Positions 26,530 to 64,000 of a stretch of DNA of 64,000 bases are shown here, in pieces (the stretch's first letter is position 1; each line of letters starts with the position of its first letter). The DNA comes from an uncultured Thermoplasmata archaeon (lineage in GTDB: Archaea > Thermoplasmatota > Thermoplasmata > Lutacidiplasmatales > UBA184). The stretch is from NCBI GenBank assembly GCA_963787975.1, contig CAWBEU010000008.1, positions 221,583 through 285,582 on the forward strand, written 5' to 3'. The notes beneath the pieces are model-generated. The model was not told where the DNA came from. It searched no databases and saw nothing but the letters and a program-made list of their open reading frames with translations. A program made the position numbers and the translations under genes.

Positions 26530-29201
26530 TCAGGTTACGGAGGGCTCGGGGGCGAGGTCCCGGACCGTCCGGAGTGTCCAGACCGTGGCCCGGGTCCGCG
26601 GAACGTTGACCCGGGTCAGGAACCGGCGGACCGACCGGGCCCGGCCGGCGTCGCCCACGAGACAGAGTAGGAACGCCCCGGCGTCGCGGGCCTTGGCCCA
26701 ATCCCGCTCGATCCGTTCTCGCCGCGTGGCTCCCGAGACCTCCGCCTCGACGTGCACGTCCCGGCCCCCGAAGGCGCGCCACATCCACTCCCCCTGGCGG
26801 CGGTCCAGATAGGTGGCGAGGTCCGCGGGCCCCCAGCGCCGGTGGTCCCGGGGCAGCACCGTGACGCGGCCGTCCGGAAGCCGGGTGTCGAACCGACCCT
26901 GCCGCAGAATCTCGAGCCGCTCGTGGTGCCGGGCGAAGATGCGCAGGGCCGCTACCAGGAGGGCTCGATGCTCGGCGCTCTCCGGCCGCGCGCCGGTACG
27001 GGCGGTCAGCCCGACCCGGTCGGCGCCGGCGGGCGACAGGAGCAGCTCTTCTCCGTTCGCGCGGACCCATCCGCGTCGTCCGAGCGTCTCGAGGGTCTGG
27101 AGGCCGATGACGGGGTCGAACGCGTCGCCCTCGTCGAGCCATCGGAAGAGCCGGGGGCGTGTCGTGATCCCTCCCTCAGCCTCGAGGGCCACCAGGCCGA
27201 GCAGGAGATCCTCTTCCAGGGAATCGGAGGATAGGGCCGCGGCTCCGTCCCGGTACGGAACCGGAGAACCGTAGCCGGCGGTCGTTCGACGCACCAATTC
27301 CTGCCAGCCCAGGAGGTCCGAGGGCGGAGCGAGCGGCATCCCGACGAGTCGACGGTCGGCGCGGGAGCCGGTGGAGCTCACCATCGCCCAGCCCGGTGGA
27401 AGGGACGGCAGGATATTTTGCGCGGTGTCGGGACCGAGACCGGCCCACGCGCCGGTCGCCACCGCCGACGCCCACGGTACCCGGAAGAGGTAGACGGTGC
27501 CGGCCGCACCGGTGAGAGCGTCCCTCAGCTCCGGCGCCAGCCGAGCCGGGTACTGCGTCGCGACGACGAGTCCGAGGCCGAATTTCCGGCCCTCCGCGAC
27601 GATCTCGCTCAACAGCCGGGCGGGGAACAGGTGCGCCTCATCCAGGACGAACAGCACCCGGAGGTCGTCGGCCGGCTCCTCCCGCGCGGCGCGCCGGACC
27701 TCCTCCAGGTAGATCCGGGTCAAGAGGAGCGTTACGGCGAAAGTGACGCCCTCCGGCCCGAGCTCGCCCATCGGCAACCGCCAGATCACCGATTCCCCCG
27801 CGCGGAGACGGGGCCCCAGCTCCACTGACCGTTCGCGCGGGGCGAGGAGGGCGGTAAGCAGGGGCGAGCCCACGACCTTGGCCACCCGAGAGGCCGCCGG
27901 CCACAGGAACTCCGGTTGCCGGCGAACTATTCCGTCCAACTCTTCGAGGAACTGTACGATCTCCGGCCGCCCCGTGGTGAGCCGGGCCGCGTCGCGGCGC
28001 CGGGGGTCCGTGAGCAGGCTCCACAGGTCGACGAGGTCGCCGCCCTGTTCCTGGACGACGTGGAGAAACGTCTCGAACAGCCGTTCGAGCCGGAATCCCC
28101 AGAATGTCTCTCCGTTCTCGGTCGATAGTCGCTTGAAGGCGGCCACGAGGTGCGCGACGAGCGCCTCTCGGTCGGCCAGCGGGACCGGGCCGAAGACCGA
28201 CAGGCCCGGGATCGCTGCCGGAGTGCCCACGACGTCGATGCCGAGCAATCGGTCCCGGGTCTCGGGGGAAGCCCGGCCACGACCCGGGGGGCCAGGTCGC
28301 CGTGCACGTCGAAGAGGACCACCGAGCGGCGCTCCGCGAGCGCCTCCCGAGCCAGGTGGGCGAGGGCGGCGGTCTTGCCGGAACCCGAGGCGCCCAACAC
28401 CACCGCATGCCGGAGGCGAGGCTCGTCGTGAAGGTCGGGGCCGAGGGGGAACGGAGCCGCCAGGCCCACCAGTTCTCGGCGGAGCCGGTGCGGTCGGGCG
28501 CCTCCCCATCGGGGTCGAGCGCCCGAAGTCCATGCGCGTCGTAGGCGGCCCCAAGGGCGAATCTCCCGCACGACGAGTTCGACGCCCGGCTCCGGGTTCG
28601 CTACGCGGCGTAGGTGTACCTCGAGCGCTGACTCGAGCGCCCGGAGCGCTTCGGGTGTGGTCGCGGCGATGCGCCCCCGGACGGTCATCCAGACGTTCCC
28701 GTCGGAGCCGACGGTCCAGTGCGTCTGGGCACCTACCCAATAAGCAAGGCCCGACGGGAGGAGGTCGCAAGCGGGGGCCAGGAGATCCTTGGGAGGCGCG
28801 CGGTCGGCTCGACCCTCGGGTCGGCCCCCCGGGGAACGGGAAGGCGCAGGATCCTCGTTCGCATCGGCCGGGACTTGCGCTCGCGCGTCCAGGTCGATAC
28901 GAACCCAGGTCTCCACGAGTCCGGGGGGTGGCCCGCAGGCCCGGTCGCAGAGATTCCGCGACCAGTGGAGGGGAATCCCCTCGCGGAGGGTGTCCATCGC
29001 AAGCACGAGCGGGTCGGAGAAGGGAAGGAGGCGCACCTCCCCCCGCTGGCCGTCCCACCATTGCTCGATGAGCAACGCGTCCCCGGGGGAGGCCGAACGG
29101 AGGTGCTCGGCCACCCGGGACAGAAAAACGCCGAGCCAGTGCGGACCGGTCTGTGGCTCGACTCGGAGGGCCGGAATCGCCGTCGAGGGAGCCGGTGTCA
29201 C
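26530..29201 (-). CDS. FtsK/HerA/TraD-type P-loop ATPase fused to wHTH and restriction-endonuclease-like C-terminus (~890 aa; one frameshift)
   Basis: The N-part lies in the frame of ORF 27927..29384, starting at GTG 29201 (GTGA overlap with the upstream gene): ...HAVVLGASGSGKTAALAHL...VVLFDVHGDLAPRVVAGLP. The C-part lies in the frame of ORF 26530..29061: PETRDRLLGIDVVG...LRVLFVLDEAHLF...GRKFGLGLVVATQ...wHTH...ESAEHRALL..LPDGRV..DVHVEAEVSG. The frames join if the G5 run at 28264-28268 (plus strand) were G6. Confidence 0.75.
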
Positions 29202-29551
29202 GCGCCGCTCCGGCCCCGTCGGTCCAGTGTCCGCACCCGAGCGGCCACCGCCGGGAGTTGGTTGAGTCGGGCGAACTCGAGCAGGGCAGGGGTAGACGCT
29301 ACCCGCCGTACCGCCCGATGACGGTCCCAGAGCCGGACGACCCACACGAGACGCAGGTCCGGAAGTCGGTACAGCCGGGCCCATGGACGGTACGGTCCGG
29401 CGATCGGCACGCGCAGTCGACCGACGTACTCGACCCGGGGATCCGTGTCGAGCTCCTCAGGAATCGGGTAGGCGGTCTCGTCGAGCCAGCGAAGGGGTTC
29501 GGCGGGAACGGGTTGTCTCGATGCCGTTGAGAGGGCCACAGTGGGCTCCAT
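29198..29551 (-). CDS. Hypothetical protein (117 aa) translationally coupled to the ATPase gene
   Basis: ATG 29551 is preceded by GGAGGGAGG. Sequence begins MEPTVALSTASRQPVPAEPLRWLDETAYPIPEELD. Its stop overlaps the GTG of the next gene. No motif recognised. Confidence 0.5.
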   Translation of the reverse strand: MEPTVALSTASRQPVPAEPLRWLDETAYPIPEELDTDPRVEYVGRLRVPIAGPYRPWARLYRLPDLRLVWVVRLWDRHRAVRRVASTPALLEFARLNQLPAVAARVRTLDRRGRSGA

Positions 29552-57937: not shown

Positions 57938-58038
57938 TGCTCCCGCCGGGATTTGAACCCGGGTTGGAGGGTGTCCTCGGCGGGGAACGTTCCCGCCTCG
58001 AAGGCCCTCTATCCTTGACCGGACTAGACTACGGGAGC
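57938..58038 (-). tRNA. tRNA-Glu (anticodon UUC) with 26-nt intron (57973..57998) at canonical 37/38 position
   Basis: Hand fold: GCUCCCG/CGGGAGC acceptor, D-arm GUCUAGUCCGGUCAAGGAU, anticodon stem GAGGG/CCCUC, T-arm CCGGG-UUCAAAU-CCCGG. The intron forms helix CCUU/GAGG flanked by 3-nt bulges CGA and ACA, plus hairpin GGCGGG-AACGUUC-CCCGCC. Confidence 0.8.
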
Positions 58039-58088: not shown

Positions 58089-59392
58089 TCAACCGACGCG
58101 TTCCCACCGTTCGAGCTTTTGCACCTGGCCCAGGGTGCTGCCGCGTCGGATCTCTTCGCGGACCCGGTTCTCGTGCTCGAGCACGTCCAACGACCGATTC
58201 GCGATCTCCTGGGCCCGCTCGCGGGGCACGACAACGAGCCCCGACAGGTCTCCCACGATCCAGTCCCCCGGCCGGACCCGCTGGCCGCCGACGGTCACCT
58301 CGACCCCAATCTCGCCATGGCCTTTGGGCTCACCGGCATTGGGCGAGATGGACCGGCTGAACACCGGGAAACCGAGCTCGAGTATCGTGTCAATGTCCCG
58401 GGCCGCGCCGTCGATCACTACCCCCGAGAGCTTCCGCATGTGGGCACTCCACGAAGCGAGCTCCCCCCACACCGCCGTCGTGCTGCTTCCCGCGTCCACC
58501 ACGAGCACATCGCCGGGTCCGGCCCGGTCGATCGCCTCCACCGGTTTCGCCCAGTCCCCATCCCGGGTGACGACGGTGACGGCCGGTCCGGCCATCCGGA
58601 AGTTGGGATCCTTGTGGTGGGCGAGCAGTCCGTGCAGCGCCCCTTTTCTCTGGAGAGCATCGCTGATGTTCGGAGTGGAGACCTTCAGGAACGCTTGGCG
58701 GATGCCCGCCTCACCGACGCGATGGAACAGCTCGGTCGCGACCTCCGTCTGGGTGGTCATGGCCTGGCGAATCCGACGCGTCGCCTCGGTGACGTTGGCG
58801 CTCTTCGTGATCGCTCCACCGACGATCAGGATCAACGCGCCGGCCCGGGTCGCCTGCGCTACGGTCTCGGAGTTGAGACCCCCGGCAACCGAAACCGGGA
58901 TCGGCGACGCACGGGCCAGCGCTTCGAGCGCGTCGAACGGGGTTCTTCCGGCCATCTGCATGTCGATGCCGATGTGCCAGCAGACCGCTCCGGCGCCCAG
59001 CTCCGCGGAGCGCTTCGCCCGAGCCACGGGGTCCGCAACATTCAGCAAGTCGACGACGATTTCGGCGCCGTACCTTCTCCGGCTCGGACCGCGTCCGCGA
59101 TCGTATCGTCGTCGGCGGCCCCGAGGACCGTTACAAGGTCCGCTCCGGCCTTGGCCGCGATCTCGACCTCAAACGCGCCGGTGTCCATCACCTTCAGATC
59201 GGCCACGATTCGATGGTTCGGGAACGCACGTTTCAGCTCCCGTACGGCGTCGAGCCCCTCGCTCTTGATGAGAGGGGTTCCGGCTTCGACCCAGTCCGCG
59301 CCTCCCTCGACGGCCTCCTTGGCGGCCTGAAGGGCCCGGGAAAGGTTCTCGAAATCGAGCGCTACCTGGAGAACCGGGCGGTCGAGCTTCAC
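58089..59392 (-). CDS. Bifunctional 3-hexulose-6-phosphate synthase / RraA-like (ribonuclease-regulator-like) fusion; one frameshift
   Basis: ORF 59042..59392 (GTG start) reads [14 protein letters not shown]...[13 protein letters not shown] 58089..59048 continues the HPS barrel (IGIDMQMAG...VSVAGGLN...LIVGGAITK), then the RraA-like part (ISDALQRKG...VVVDAGSS...GELAS...VIDGAARD). The frames join (..AGE[13 protein letters not shown]..) with one missing base near 59073-59078. Confidence 0.8.
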
Positions 59393-59422: not shown

Positions 59423-60232
59423 GTGAGCCAACCTGCCCGGAACACTGTGGCTGCCCCGTGTTCGGTACGAGTCATCGCCGGGGACGCCCGGCGCATGCCC
59501 GGTGTCGCGCCGGACTCCGTGGCGCTGGTAGTGACGTCGCCGCCGTACCCCATGATCGCGCAGTGGGACGAGCTCTTCGCGAGCTGGGGAGCGACCGACT
59601 TCGAGACGATGCATCGGGAGCTCGACCGGGTCTGGGCGGCGTGCCACCGCGCCCTGATGACGGGTGGGATCCTCGCGGTCAACATCGGAGATGCGGTACG
59701 GAGCGTGTCGGGCGAGTTCCGGCTCTGGTCGAATCACACGCGGGTCGTCTCCGCGGCCGAAAAGCTCGGGTTTCGGTCCCTCCCCTACATCCTTTGGAAG
59801 AAGCCGACCAACAAGCCGAACGCCTTCCTGGGGTCCGGCTTCCTCCCCCCGAACGCCTACGTGACCTTGGACTGCGAGTTCATTCTGCTCTTCCGGAAGG
59901 GACCTCTTCGGCGGTTGTCGCCCGGTTCCTCCGCACGCTTGGCAAGCCGGTACCGGAAAGAGGAACGAGATGTGTGGTTCTCGCAGGTCTGGGAGGGGAT
60001 TCGAGGCGTACCCCAGTCGCACGAGGGCCGGCGCTCCGGCGCGTTCCCCCCGGAGATTCCACGTCGGCTGATCCGGATGTTCTCGGTTGTCGGGGACACC
60101 GTGCTCGATCCGTTTGCGGGCACCGGAACGACGCTGTGGGAGGCGTCGAGCCTCGGCCGGCACGCCATTGGGATTGAGGTCGACCCCGCGCGGGTCCACG
60201 AACTCGAGAAGGAACGACGGCGTCACGGGTAG
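59423..60232 (+). CDS. DNA methyltransferase, beta-class N4-cytosine/N6-adenine type (N6_N4_Mtase family)
   Basis: Motif IV VVTSPPYP comes before motif I VLDPFAGTGTTLWEA (the beta permutation). The start may be GTG 59447 if the transcript is leaderless. Confidence 0.85.
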   Translation: MSQPARNTVAAPCSVRVIAGDARRMPGVAPDSVALVVTSPPYPMIAQWDELFASWGATDFETMHRELDRVWAACHRALMTGGILAVNIGDAVRSVSGEFRLWSNHTRVVSAAEKLGFRSLPYILWKKPTNKPNAFLGSGFLPPNAYVTLDCEFILLFRKGPLRRLSPGSSARLASRYRKEERDVWFSQVWEGIRGVPQSHEGRRSGAFPPEIPRRLIRMFSVVGDTVLDPFAGTGTTLWEASSLGRHAIGIEVDPARVHELEKERRRHG

Positions 60233-60255
60233 ACCCCCGCCGCCGGGGGGGGCCG

Positions 60256-60795
60256 CTAGATTTGCCGGTGCTGGACTTCCTCTTCCACCGCCCGCTGGAG
60301 ATACTTGAGCGAGGAATCCGACAGCCGGTCCATGTGGAGCAGTAGATAGTGCAGATAGATTCGCTCCGGACGGCGCGACGGCCCGGGCGTGTGGGGCCGG
60401 GTTCCCGGCGACGGCGGCTCGGCCACGGTCGTCATCTCGTCCAGCGTGGGCTGATGGTGCTCGTGCGCGGAGCCGTGGAAGTTGCGGCCCGTCTCCCCGA
60501 CGAGGGGAGGGTGGACGCGTGCAACGGGGTCATCGGGGTCCTCCGCCTCCTCGACCGGGGCCGCCGGAACGCCGGTGGTGACCGACAGACGAGGGGGGGT
60601 GGAGGAGGAGGGTGGAACGGACTTCAGGAATGGATGCTCCGGCCGTCCGGGCTCCTGCATATCCTCGATCGAGCGGCCGGTGACGTCCTCGACGATATGC
60701 CGGAGGTTCCAGGAATCACGACGACGGCGGGCCGGACCCTCCTCGGTCGCGGGCGCTATCTCCGCCATCGGGGGAGGCTTCCCGGCCGAGCTCAC
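60256..60795 (-). CDS. Hypothetical protein (up to 179 aa)
   Basis: P/E-rich N-half, helical C-terminus ERIYLHYLLLHMDRLSDSSLKYLQRAVEEEV. The listed start is GTG; ATG 60768 is an alternative. The 5' end overlaps the 3' end of the VirB4-like gene. Confidence 0.45.
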   Translation of the reverse strand: MSSAGKPPPMAEIAPATEEGPARRRRDSWNLRHIVEDVTGRSIEDMQEPGRPEHPFLKSVPPSSSTPPRLSVTTGVPAAPVEEAEDPDDPVARVHPPLVGETGRNFHGSAHEHHQPTLDEMTTVAEPPSPGTRPHTPGPSRRPERIYLHYLLLHMDRLSDSSLKYLQRAVEEEVQHRQI

Positions 60796-62494
60796 TTAAA
60801 CGTGCCGTTCGAGGGGAACGGACCTCGGGCGGTTCGGGGGCTTCCCCGCGCCCGAGAAGAGACTCCAACCACTCGAATTCGGGGGTCGAGGCGACGATCG
60901 CAAGGGGGAGGTGCCCGGCCCCGAAGCGGAGCAGCCCCTCGGAATAGCCGGCTTCCCCAGGCAGCCGCGTTCTCGGCAACCATTCTGCCTCGGCGGCCGT
61001 GAGTTGGAAGAAGTCCCGGGTGTCCGTCGAGACCTCGGAGAGGCGTAGGAGCATCGTGGCCCGTAGGTTCCGGAGCAGCGACCGACCCGCCCCGGTCGTC
61101 AGGAAGTCGTCCGGGTTCTGGCTCAGCAGGAGAAGACCGGCCCGGTAATGGCGGACGTGACGAACCAACTGGTCGAGGAACTCTGCGGTGGCGGGATGGC
61201 GGACCAGGTAATGGGCTTCGTCCACGACCAACAGTTTAGGTCGATCGTCGGCGCGCACGCGGGCGGTGAGGGCGTCGAGCGCGTAGGTCAGATGGAACGG
61301 GAGCTGCTCGGGCGGTACCGCATGCAAGTCCAGAGTGAGGGGGGACCCCTCGAGGGATACGGTCGTAGGGCCATCGAGATACTGGAGGGAGCCGTGCCGG
61401 AACACTTCGAGGAGGTCGTTCAGCCGCTCGGCCCCGGGTCGGTGGGCGAGCGCGTCGAGGAGGTCGGACCAGACCGGAATCTCCCGGCCCTCTCGATACA
61501 ACTGGCTCAATCGGCCGTCGAGCAAGGCGCCCTCGGCATCGGTGAGGCTTGGGAAAAGCGCCCGAAGCATCGTCCCCACACGACCCGCTTTCGCGTCGCG
61601 ATCCCCACCCGTCGAGACTGGGTCCAACGGATTCAATCGCTCGTGGCCGCCAGGACCGACGGTGATGACCGACCCGCCGAGGGCCCGGGTGAGGCGTGCG
61701 AATTCCCCCAGGGGATCCACGAAGAGCAGCTGGGCTTCCGGACAATTCCACCGGGTCCGGAGAGACCACAGGGCGGCGGCGAACGACTTGCCCGAGCCCG
61801 TGCTCCCGAAAATCCCCCAAGAGTAGCTGCCGTGCGTCCAGCGGTTGAGAAAGACCGGGTTCGCGTCGTCTAGGAGGAGCCCCACTAGGATGCCCCCCGG
61901 TTCGTGCACGCTCTCGTCCACGAAAGGGAACAGGGCGGCAATCGCGTCGGTGGCGAGGGTATGCCAGTACCCCGTGGGCCGGGGGAGAGCTCGTTCGGGT
62001 CCGGGTCAGATGGGATGAGCCCGGTCTCGAAGGTCGGCAAGCGAGCCCGGAATCCGAGCTCGTGGAGGCGATGGATCAGATGTGAACGGGCTCGCTCGGC
62101 CCTTCCCCGTCCCCGACCGCGCGCGTGGAAGCTGAGGCCGACGCGCCATAGATCCTGGTCCCGTGCTGCGACGCGGGCCGCGAGTTCTCGAGCGCTGTCG
62201 GCGTCGTGCTGGAGTTCGGACGGACGAGCGCCCGGGCTGTTCACGCGGGTTTCGAGGTCCGCCTCCGCGACGGCCGCCGCCTTCTCGGCGACGTCTCAGC
62301 GCGGAGCTCCTCGAGAACTTGCGAAGCGTGAGCCGGAGCTCCACCGGCTCAGAGGTCGGGAGCACCTGCCCGAGGAAGCCGAAGGGGACCTCGGAAGGGA
62401 GGTCCGTCACGAGAACCGGGGCGTCGACCCGGATGCCGTGGGTTAGCCAGGATCGACCCTCCTCAGTGCCGGATCCGCTCCCGCGACGGGTCAT
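60716..62494 (-). CDS. VirB4/TrbE-like (AAA_10) DNA-transfer ATPase, broken into three frames by two indels
   Basis: Piece 1 (62494 down): MTRRGSG...VLVTDLPSEVPFGFLGQVL. Piece 2 (61885..62244 frame): DVAEKAAAVAEADLE..SELQHDADSARELAARVAARDQDLWRVGLSF. Piece 3: YWHTLATDAIAALFPFVDES..., Walker A GIFGSTGSGKSF, Walker B PKLLVVDEAHYL, LLLLSQNPDDF. Junctions are at ~62280-62296 and at the G5 run 61981-61985. Confidence 0.75.
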
Positions 62495-62495
62495 G

Positions 62496-62855
62496 TCAGA
62501 TCCCCGCCCAGGCGGACCGTGCGAGGAACCAGAGCCCTACTGAGACGCCCCCTAGGAGCAGCGCGCGTCCCGGCGGAAAGATTGGACCGAAGAGGACAGC
62601 GGCACTCCACCCGGCACCGCCGAGTGCGAGGAACGGAAGGAGGCGGACGGGTCGGTAACCCGTCGCCCGTCGCGTTCGTAGCGCACGAAGGGCCCGAATC
62701 CAAACGACGAAGCTCGCTACGGCGGCGAGACTGATGGCACCCGCGACCAGCTCAGGCCATACGAGCGACGCCGCGCCGGCCAGGGCGGTTCCAACGGACG
62801 AGGTCGAAAGGGGATCGAGGTCACGCGGGGACAATGCATCGGAGCCAGCGGTCAC
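62496..62855 (-). CDS. Small membrane protein (119 aa, ~3-4 TM)
   Basis: Hydrophobic helices (AASLVWPELVAGAISLAAVASFVVWI, LLPFLALGGAGWSAAVLFGPIF, LLLGGVSVGLWFLA). Its stop is 1 nt from the VirB4-like start, and its start overlaps the upstream gene. Confidence 0.5.
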   Translation of the reverse strand: MTAGSDALSPRDLDPLSTSSVGTALAGAASLVWPELVAGAISLAAVASFVVWIRALRALRTRRATGYRPVRLLPFLALGGAGWSAAVLFGPIFPPGRALLLGGVSVGLWFLARSAWAGI

Positions 62856-63607
62856 GAAGCGACTCCACAGGTCGAAGCGGGTCGTCCACGGTCCGCGGGA
62901 ATTCTCCGCGCCGGTATCCCTAGGCGGTCCAGCGCCCCCACGAGTTCGTCCAGTTGGGTGTCGAGATTGATTGTCCTCGGTCCTCGGTCAGAGGGATCGC
63001 TCCACACCGTGAGATCCACTACTCGGCGGTACCGGCGACGGAGCAGGAGGTGCACCAACTCTCGGTAGGATTGCAGGGCCGGTCGCTCCGCGTCGTGCGG
63101 GCTCGCGGAAACCGGTAGGAAGGGTAGCGGAGAGAACACTTCTCCCCGCATGCGACAGCCGATGGGGCGATCCAGCGTCGCGAGGATCGACCGCCACTCC
63201 TCGAACAGACGCTGGAGTTCGTGGGGGGGCAGGTAGGCGATAGGGATGCCACCAGCTTGTACCGAGGTGGAAGCTCCCCGTGAGGAGCCCGGGGAAGGAT
63301 GGGTCGGGGGCGAAGCGCCCGACCCGCGGCGAGATCCGACGGAGGATCGCCATTGGAATCGACAGTACCCCAGCGCGAAATCGTCCAGCGTCTGTCCTTC
63401 AACCCGTACGAAGGCGATCATCGCCCCGGCGGCAAGAAAGGGGAGCCACACGACGGCCGAGGTGACCGCCGCGATGGTCGCGCCGATGATGGCGAGACAG
63501 AGAAACTTGACCAGGTCGCGCCCTGACCCGAAGGGACCGAGGCGAAGCCGGCGGTATGCGAGGTGATGGATCGGTATTGCCGACAGGTCGGCGGGAGCGA
63601 AACCCAT
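62852..63607 (-). CDS. PrgI/VirB3-like two-TM protein with soluble C-terminal region
   Basis: ATG 63607. DLSAIPIHHLAYRRLRLGPFGSGRDLVKFLCLAIIGATIAAVTSAVVWLPFLAAGAMIAFVRVEGQTLDDFALGY resembles PrgI/TcpE-type proteins. The C-part (YLPPHELQRLFEEWRSILATLDRPI) resembles VirB4 N-domain starts. Confidence 0.45.
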   Translation of the reverse strand: MGFAPADLSAIPIHHLAYRRLRLGPFGSGRDLVKFLCLAIIGATIAAVTSAVVWLPFLAAGAMIAFVRVEGQTLDDFALGYCRFQWRSSVGSRRGSGASPPTHPSPGSSRGASTSVQAGGIPIAYLPPHELQRLFEEWRSILATLDRPIGCRMRGEVFSPLPFLPVSASPHDAERPALQSYRELVHLLLRRRYRRVVDLTVWSDPSDRGPRTINLDTQLDELVGALDRLGIPARRIPADRGRPASTCGVAS

Positions 63608-63619
63608 CCTTTTCTCCCG

Positions 63620-64000
63620 TTAGTGCGGATCTCCGGTCGAGGGCGGTTGTTGCAACCCGGTGGTGCGGGACGGGTGGCCCCGGACGGAGGTGTGAGCGGC
63701 CTGGAAGTGACGCAGATGTTGGAACAGCTGGCGAGACCCTTGGGTCACTAGGTGTCCGGCTCCCAACACCAGCCCACCCGGGAGCGGTGCCTTCCCCAGG
63801 TGATTCGCGAAGCTCCGCACCGCCGACCCCAGCTGAGCCGCGCGTCCCGTGGAGGCAGCGCCCGGTGCGGCCCCGCTGGCATTCCCCTGAGCCGTCAGCG
63901 CGGCCACCGTGAGCCCCCGCTGCAGGCCTCCGGTGAGCGCACCACCGGCGGAGGGGAACCCCATGCCTCCGAGCTGGGTCCGCGAGATCGAGATGAGATA
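63620..64000 (-). CDS. Gly/Ala-rich protein, C-terminal part only (frame open to the window edge)
   Basis: The frame of ORF 63620..63964 stays open upstream to position 64000 (..ISISRTQLGGMGFPSAGGALTGG..). Same strand and tight spacing with the transfer-like genes. Confidence 0.35.
   Translation of the reverse strand, partial: YLISISRTQLGGMGFPSAGGALTGGLQRGLTVAALTAQGNASGAAPGAASTGRAAQLGSAVRSFANHLGKAPLPGGLVLGAGHLVTQGSRQLFQHLRHFQAAHTSVRGHPSRTTGLQQPPSTGDPH

Follow-up and report, generated by a model that had tools for sequence, protein, structure and literature searches.

Does a string of genes resembling a DNA-transfer apparatus, found on the chromosome of an uncultured archaeon, belong to a mobile element inserted there or to the host itself, and what would such an apparatus move? 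The question is raised by a locus at one end of a 64,000-nucleotide stretch of DNA (the window; positions 221,583-285,582 of contig CAWBEU010000008.1, assembly GCA_963787975.1) from an uncultured Thermoplasmata archaeon of the order Lutacidiplasmatales. An earlier note on this DNA had described five tightly packed minus-strand genes, including one for a VirB4-like ATPase, next to a convergent methyltransferase gene, and had offered two readings: an integrated conjugative element (ICE), or a DNA-import system of the Ced/Ted type. We analyzed the locus on the contig beyond the window and across related genomes. That the operon is derived from a type IV secretion system (T4SS) and is chromosomally fixed is well supported. 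The most likely reading of its role is a Ced/Ted-like machine for pilus formation and DNA exchange, two activities that are inferred.

The host genome comprises 2.14 Mb in 12 contigs (85.7% complete), and the contig that carries the window extends 32 kb past the window end; positions above 64000 denote this further sequence in the same numbering. All ORFs (open reading frames) named in the earlier note were found in the window at the coordinates it gave, and extension past 64000, which it had advised, added two more genes. Read on the contig, the string is a seven-gene minus-strand operon of which the window holds the downstream part, while ~2.7 kb lie outside. Its order is: a PKD-repeat surface protein of 511 amino acids (aa; 65185-66720) and a VirB2-like pilin of 126 aa (64808-65188), both encoded beyond the window; a VirB6-like polytopic membrane protein of 389 aa (63620-64789); a PrgI/VirB3-like membrane protein of 251 aa (62852-63607); a small multi-pass membrane protein of 119 aa (62496-62855); the VirB4-family ATPase (60716-62494); and a proline- and glutamate-rich (P/E-rich) protein of 171-179 aa (60256-60795). 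The genes are joined by overlaps of 4 nucleotides (nt) or by gaps of less than 20 nt. The partial Gly/Ala-rich protein seen earlier at the window edge exists as an ORF but is really the C-terminal tail (63620-64000) of the 389-aa polytopic protein. Housekeeping genes flank the operon, with a RidA-family gene and fibrillarin upstream, and the convergent methyltransferase gene and an HPS-RraA fusion gene (hexulose-phosphate synthase-like and RraA-like) on the other side.

Synteny was counted over 80 species-level loci, each gene being scored only where the length of the flank allowed it. The gene string is real and not a chance arrangement: the same order recurs in 61/61 related species loci with enough flank, where the pilin-like, VirB6-like and PrgI-like genes are all present and the VirB6-like gene always sits between the other two. 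The P/E-rich gene was found in 71/71 loci and the PKD gene in 48/54. Comparison with relatives, another step proposed in the earlier note, places the operon at one fixed site in all 80 species, with RidA-fibrillarin on one side and the methyltransferase and HPS-RraA (present in 56/59) on the other. Each of the seven genera in the host family preserves the complete gene order, and 23 of the family's 24 sampled genomes contain the ATPase, mostly as a single copy. When families were compared, a pilin profile matched 53 of 59 genomes in f1 and 41 of 43 in f20 (Thermoplasmatales), nearly always in single copy, with further matches in f21 (6/6, weakly), f15 (3/8) and f34; none of the 171 genomes in four large families (f6, f8, f17 and f27) was matched. 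Homologous cores can be named in Thermoplasma volcanium GSS1 (BAB59779-BAB59781), Ferroplasma acidiphilum, Ferroplasma acidarmanus and Aciduliprofundum boonei T469. The core in these other lineages consists of a pilin, a VirB6-like protein, a PrgI-like protein of ~245 aa or its equivalent as an N-terminal VirB4 fusion, sometimes a small membrane protein, and VirB4. The membrane ORFs of the window have counterparts beside VirB4 homologues across the class.

The ATPase carries Walker A (GSTGSGKS) and Walker B (LLVVDEAHY) motifs in the window ORF 60716-61921. We compared a profile of 20 ATPase sequences with the PDB and obtained VirB4 (4AG5) at E 1.3e-31, with 348 positions aligned across the whole C-terminal domain, and the top HerA-type helicase at 6.5e-7. 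The NCBIfam ranking is led by CD1110-type VirB4 (9.6e-39), followed by Mycoplasma ICE VirB4, VirB4/CagE and TraC; HerA_antiphage scores E 0.015, and CedD gives a weak local match in the Walker B region (E 1.6e-8). Pfam AAA_10 and DUF87 (the HerA central domain) match weakly. No NCBIfam equivalog cut-off is reached, the CD1110 family giving 133 bits vs a cut-off of 325. Judged by these scores, the protein belongs with the monoderm/archaeal (MPF_FATA-like) VirB4 proteins as a divergent form, and it lies outside every named bacterial subfamily because the equivalog cut-offs are not attained. Its relatives on plasmids are numerous and distant: a tblastn search matched 2384 records, 1688 of them predicted conjugative, with haloarchaeal megaplasmids at the top (~25% identity), then Gram-positive CD1110-type genes, and a maximum of 32% identity to any plasmid gene. 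The family is large: in a representative library, 7535 clusters fall within E <= 1e-3, and 633 pass the stricter limit of E <= 1e-30. Two genomes from other genera of the host family (G016 and G020) each contain as many as four VirB4 homologues, some of them in ORFs of 867-1447 aa with 33-38% identity to the core copy; these extra copies may represent additional, perhaps mobile, T4SS-like systems.

The VirB6-like, PrgI-like and pilin identities are supported to varying degrees. The pilin-like protein combines a signal peptide with two long hydrophobic helices (H47-82 and H87-124) separated by a basic loop, as read from the sequence and a predicted model, and PF18895 (T4SS_pilin) matches 5/17 of its homologues (best E 5.4e-5). 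The AlphaFold model of the VirB6-like protein has a mean pLDDT of 66, rising to ~80 in the helical core (residues 1-270); in a Foldseek search of the PDB its four best matches were all TrwI/VirB6 of the R388 T4SS (7o3v_F, probability 1.00). Sequence and profile searches with this protein and its homologues returned no Pfam or PDB match. The PrgI-like protein consists of an N-terminal transmembrane hairpin and a conserved soluble domain. It matches Pfam PrgI at E 0.0047, under the curated cut-off; 5/15 homologues match PrgI as well, and the N-terminus of the window protein matches the NCBIfam SCO6880 family at E 1.1e-4; a profile search of its alignment against the PDB found nothing. T. volcanium and Ferroplasma have proteins of 669-703 aa in which VirB4 bears an equivalent transmembrane segment at its N-terminus, and topology, position and this fusion in Thermoplasmatales agree with a VirB3 role.

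The remaining three proteins, namely the PKD protein, the small membrane protein and the P/E-rich cytoplasmic protein, appear to be lineage-specific additions to the T4SS core. The PKD protein, up to ~1500 aa in some genera, is anchored by a transmembrane segment and has a cytoplasmic tail besides its PKD domains. This tail (~90 aa), which weakly matches DUF5817_CT (E 0.009), resembles a small domain of helices, possibly a winged helix. The 119-aa gene overlaps the stop of the PrgI-like gene by 4 nt and ends 2 nt short of the VirB4 ATG; sequence homologues of its product were found only within the genus, and proteins of 108-136 aa occupy the corresponding position in A. boonei and family f21. 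The P/E-rich gene likely starts at ATG 60768, which overlaps the VirB4 3' end, and its product has conserved ends (N-terminal RRRxSWxLRxIVEDVTG and C-terminal ERIYLHYLLLHxDRL..ALKYL) around a disordered middle. Family searches with the 119-aa and P/E-rich proteins found no match. In the Aboo_1058 region of A. boonei T469, five tandem genes each end in a pilin-like two-helix domain, and in four of the five this domain follows a large extracellular N-terminal part (320-405 aa), which suggests adhesins fused to pilin, or minor pilins.

A second ATPase, a possible partner of the operon machine, is encoded 31 kb away (26530-29384, minus strand; ~890 aa, frame-broken). It belongs to the TraD/HerA superfamily: its N-terminal ORF weakly matches DUF87, HerA_C and TrwB_AAD_bind, and it carries a winged helix-turn-helix and a nuclease-like tail. 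In family f34 a homologous gene (BLASTP E 3e-13) is part of the operon, where it overlaps the stop of VirB4. Coupling-type ATPases of this kind occur in 56/59 genomes of f1, 31/43 of f20, 4/6 of f21 and 8/10 of f10, and in few of f6, f8, f17 and f27. This distribution broadly tracks the cluster, f10 excepted, which is suggestive only, the related genomes not being independent.

We propose, at slightly better than an even chance, that the operon is a host-owned, vertically inherited derivative of a monoderm-type (MPF_FATA-like) T4SS or conjugation machine that moves chromosomal DNA between cells. The VirB3-like protein would hold VirB4 at the membrane, where VirB4 would extract the pilin and, with the VirB6-like protein as platform, polymerise it into a pilus or channel of the conjugative type; the PKD protein would mediate cell-cell contact. 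Possibly fed by the coupling-type ATPase encoded at 26530-29384, the machine would carry chromosomal DNA from one cell to another within a species, in the manner of the crenarchaeal Ced and Ted. Two circumstantial points favour DNA as cargo: the second, coupling-type ATPase inside the f34 operon, and the high homologous recombination of natural Ferroplasma populations (PMC2704941).

Several other explanations of the locus have to be weighed, and two of them concern the ATPase itself. It could be a HerA/FtsK-type enzyme without a transfer role, surrounded by unrelated membrane ORFs, as the weak DUF87 matches and the many database entries titled 'DUF87 domain-containing' might suggest. The earlier note had regarded a better fit to HerA/FtsK as fatal to its VirB4-like assignment; the fit to VirB4 is the better one, by ~25 orders of magnitude in E-value in the PDB comparison, CD1110 VirB4 also heads the NCBIfam ranking, and the membrane genes accompany the ATPase in four families across several orders of Thermoplasmata. 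On these profile and family ranks, together with the conserved synteny, we rejected a HerA-type enzyme and give that reading practically no credence. The operon could also be a decaying pseudogene cluster in the host organism. The VirB4 frame is indeed broken twice: tblastn and DNA alignment place the true start at ATG 62494, with one base gained near 62297 and one lost from a C-run near 61985, and these compensating indels leave the gene distributed over three frames and put a stop in frame at 62006. The earlier note had overlooked these frameshifts. The open frame is 429 aa in the window vs 595-624 aa in same-genus genomes. Against decay, the ~100 shifted codons between the indels still encode protein 84% identical to that of a same-genus relative, and an intact 592-aa ATPase, 96% identical, is present in public data. 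Genes elsewhere in the window are broken too: HPS-RraA (58089-59392, minus strand), a single frame in relatives, is split near 59042-59048, with 59392 and 59048 out of register, and the ATPase at 26530-29384 has already been mentioned. We sampled 82 long genes with intact frames from 200 kb of a same-genus genome; 21 of them change frame in the host assembly, a rate typical of an unpolished long-read assembly, and we estimate an indel density of ~1 per 4 kb of coding sequence. Because about a quarter of conserved genes are broken alike across the genome, the ATPase frameshifts are most likely assembly errors and not decay, a strong inference from the comparative gene-break rate, on which the pseudogene reading was rejected as very unlikely. 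Since roughly every fourth gene of this assembly has an indel, its apparent pseudogenes and its split ORFs are in general likely to be assembly errors and should not be trusted.

The two further alternatives concern the ownership and the cargo of the machine. Insertion of an ICE, or its remnant, near a tRNA gene would fit the presence of T4SS-type genes, the tRNA gene located 1.4 kb away from the methyltransferase, and the broken ATPase frame, which is common in decayed elements. The operon nevertheless keeps the same position and flanks in 80 species and is present throughout the family. The contig of the window contains no integrase, tyrosine recombinases being found on contigs C7, C10 and C12 only; the two relaxase families searched (PF03432 and PF08751) match nowhere in the 85.7% complete host genome; and neither a relaxase nor a coupling protein lies in the operon or its flanks, the coupling-type ATPases being located elsewhere in the genome. 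Nor is the 3' half of the tRNA repeated nearby, a check that the earlier note had proposed along with the integrase search, and the G+C content (0.66-0.69) equals that of the flanks. With the site fixed, no integrase on the contig, no match to the two relaxase families and no tRNA-derived repeats, we rejected the ICE alternative as extremely unlikely. Of the two possibilities in the earlier note it is the Ced/Ted-type one that is supported: a chromosomal, vertically inherited VirB2, VirB6 and VirB4 set without mobile-element genes. A host-owned machine could still be free of DNA cargo and serve adhesion, contact with partner cells or the formation of biofilms, by way of a conjugative-type pilus or of secreted proteins. 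We regard this as rather unlikely. In its favour, a PKD-repeat surface protein always heads the operon and reaches ~1500 aa in some genera, the five tandem pilin-domain proteins of A. boonei include large extracellular parts, and in the host lineage no relaxase was matched by the two families searched and the operon is without a coupling ATPase. On the other side, Ced and Ted are both tied to DNA transfer (import shown for Ced, proposed for Ted; PMC9905601), and the f34 operon contains a coupling-type ATPase. Some results also weigh against our proposal of a T4SS-derived DNA-exchange machine. The membrane components resemble T4SS parts weakly or structurally only: the pilin-like protein of the window genome itself gets no Pfam match, Foldseek with the pilin model returned nothing above noise, as a helical hairpin would lead one to expect, a PDB profile search likewise gave nothing, and the VirB6 fold match is weak (E 0.017, TM-scores 0.32/0.43, from the model of mean pLDDT 66). 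The same two-family relaxase result and the lack of an in-operon coupling protein in the host lineage count here as well, as does the presence of the coupling-type ATPase in family f10, which is without the pilin.

Only two domesticated T4SS derivatives, Ced and Ted, have been described in archaea; both belong to hyperthermophilic Crenarchaeota, they share no recognisable sequence similarity, and in 2023 the authors of the Ted study wrote that no comparable domestication was known in other lineages (PMC9905601). Among the closest known systems is Ted of Thermoproteales (TedC pilin, TedA VirB6-like, TedB VirB4-like; Beltran et al. 2023, PMC9905601), which is likewise chromosomal, host-owned and free of a relaxase, and which shares with the operon a VirB2-like pilin with a (cleavable) signal peptide, encoded directly upstream of the VirB6-like gene. 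Unlike Ted, the operon occurs in Thermoplasmatota rather than Thermoproteota and includes genes for a distinct PrgI/VirB3-like protein, for a PKD surface protein and for a P/E-rich protein; the ParA/VirC1-like, HerA and Rad50 neighbours described for Ted are missing. Ced of Sulfolobales and Desulfurococcales (CedA, CedA1, CedA2, CedB and later CedD) is also a chromosomal domesticated T4SS derivative. It imports DNA between cells for repair. Its pilins escape processing by signal peptidase (PMC9905601), whereas the pilin of the operon bears a signal peptide.

The best sequence relatives of the ATPase belong to MPF_FATA conjugation systems from monoderm bacteria and archaeal plasmids (pCF10 PrgI/PrgJ/PrgH, CD1110-type VirB4 and the haloarchaeal megaplasmid T4SS), which like the operon have a PrgI-type VirB3 and no outer-membrane components. 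They are plasmid- or ICE-borne and encode a relaxase and a coupling protein, in many cases also a cell-wall hydrolase, whereas the operon is chromosomally fixed. The chromosomal T4SS of Patescibacteria (PMC12102498) resembles it in being vertically inherited and reduced, with an MPF_FATA-related VirB4, PrgI/VirB3, VirB6 and a VirB2-like pilin of PF18895 type in small genomes; it differs in being bacterial, commonly accompanied by TrsD and tied to an epibiotic lifestyle (PMC12102498). Within the Thermoplasmata, the paper on Cuniculiplasma divulgatum lists 'type IV secretion components' (arCOG05340, arCOG04034 VirB4 and arCOG05369) and a separate VirD4-like ATPase, arCOG04816, and does not analyse them further (PMC5155288). 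Compared by annotation list only, these components fit the simpler Thermoplasmatales form of the cluster seen in Thermoplasma and Ferroplasma; the Lutacidiplasmatales form has three conserved genes beyond it. The cluster is not mentioned in the Lutacidiplasmatales paper, and in a December 2025 review the archaeal section is limited to conjugative plasmids from Sulfolobus and from a hyperthermophilic euryarchaeon (PMC12857230). New here are the synteny across 80 species, the second ATPase within the f34 operon, the named homologues in cultured species and the account of the broken ATPase as an assembly error.

Beside Ced and Ted, the operon may be a third archaeal system for cell-to-cell DNA exchange. 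If so, capture of T4SS parts for host use would be recurrent in archaea (soil Lutacidiplasmatales, cultured Thermoplasmatales and A. boonei), and a mechanism would be at hand for the frequent recombination in acid-mine Ferroplasma populations. Homologues in the cultivable genera Thermoplasma, Ferroplasma and Aciduliprofundum make the system open to direct testing.

The methyltransferase gene (59423-60232, plus strand), convergent with the operon, encodes a beta-class N4/N6 DNA methyltransferase with motif IV upstream of motif I (TSPPY ... DPFAGTGTT). It matches PF01555 at E 2e-35 (123 bits vs a cut-off of 26.7), and its nearest solved relative is the putative modification methylase 2ZIE (E 1.5e-41). 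No restriction partner is present, in agreement with its earlier description as an orphan, and the host genome has several such enzymes. The gene adjoins the operon in 62/65 loci, and a homologue of 29% identity is likewise convergent to VirB4 in A. boonei; in other genera of the family and in Thermoplasmatales the cluster occurs without an adjacent methyltransferase. It is a conserved solitary enzyme, and adjacency alone shows no functional link, neighbouring housekeeping genes being equally conserved. A tentative and, on balance, improbable extension of the DNA-exchange proposal would join the operon, the remote coupling-type ATPase and this methyltransferase into a third, independently domesticated archaeal DNA-exchange system, Thermoplasmata-wide and species-specific, in which the methyltransferase would mark self DNA. 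If real, the three-part system would account for the high recombination of Ferroplasma populations in nature.

The tRNA gene, placed by the earlier note 1.4 kb to the left and called tRNA-Glu, is real (57938-58038, minus strand), but its isotype is ambiguous. It contains a 26-nt intron and was recovered in Rfam E-value mode (47.8 bits), being missed by default ARAGORN and at the Rfam gathering threshold. The Rfam alignment gives Glu(UUC), with the anticodon loop CCUUCGA and an unusual C33, and ARAGORN -i gives Arg(UCG) with a mismatched stem.

Elsewhere in the host genome, an ATPase of ~1000 aa on contig C10 (311369-314503, minus strand; TraG-D_C, DUF87, TrwB) lies ~0.9 kb from a tyrosine integrase (315380-315787, plus strand), and the segment 311369-315787 may be a genuine integrated mobile element, distinct from the chromosomal operon. 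A second ATPase of the TraG-D_C/DUF87/TrwB type is encoded on the same contig at 13250-16411.

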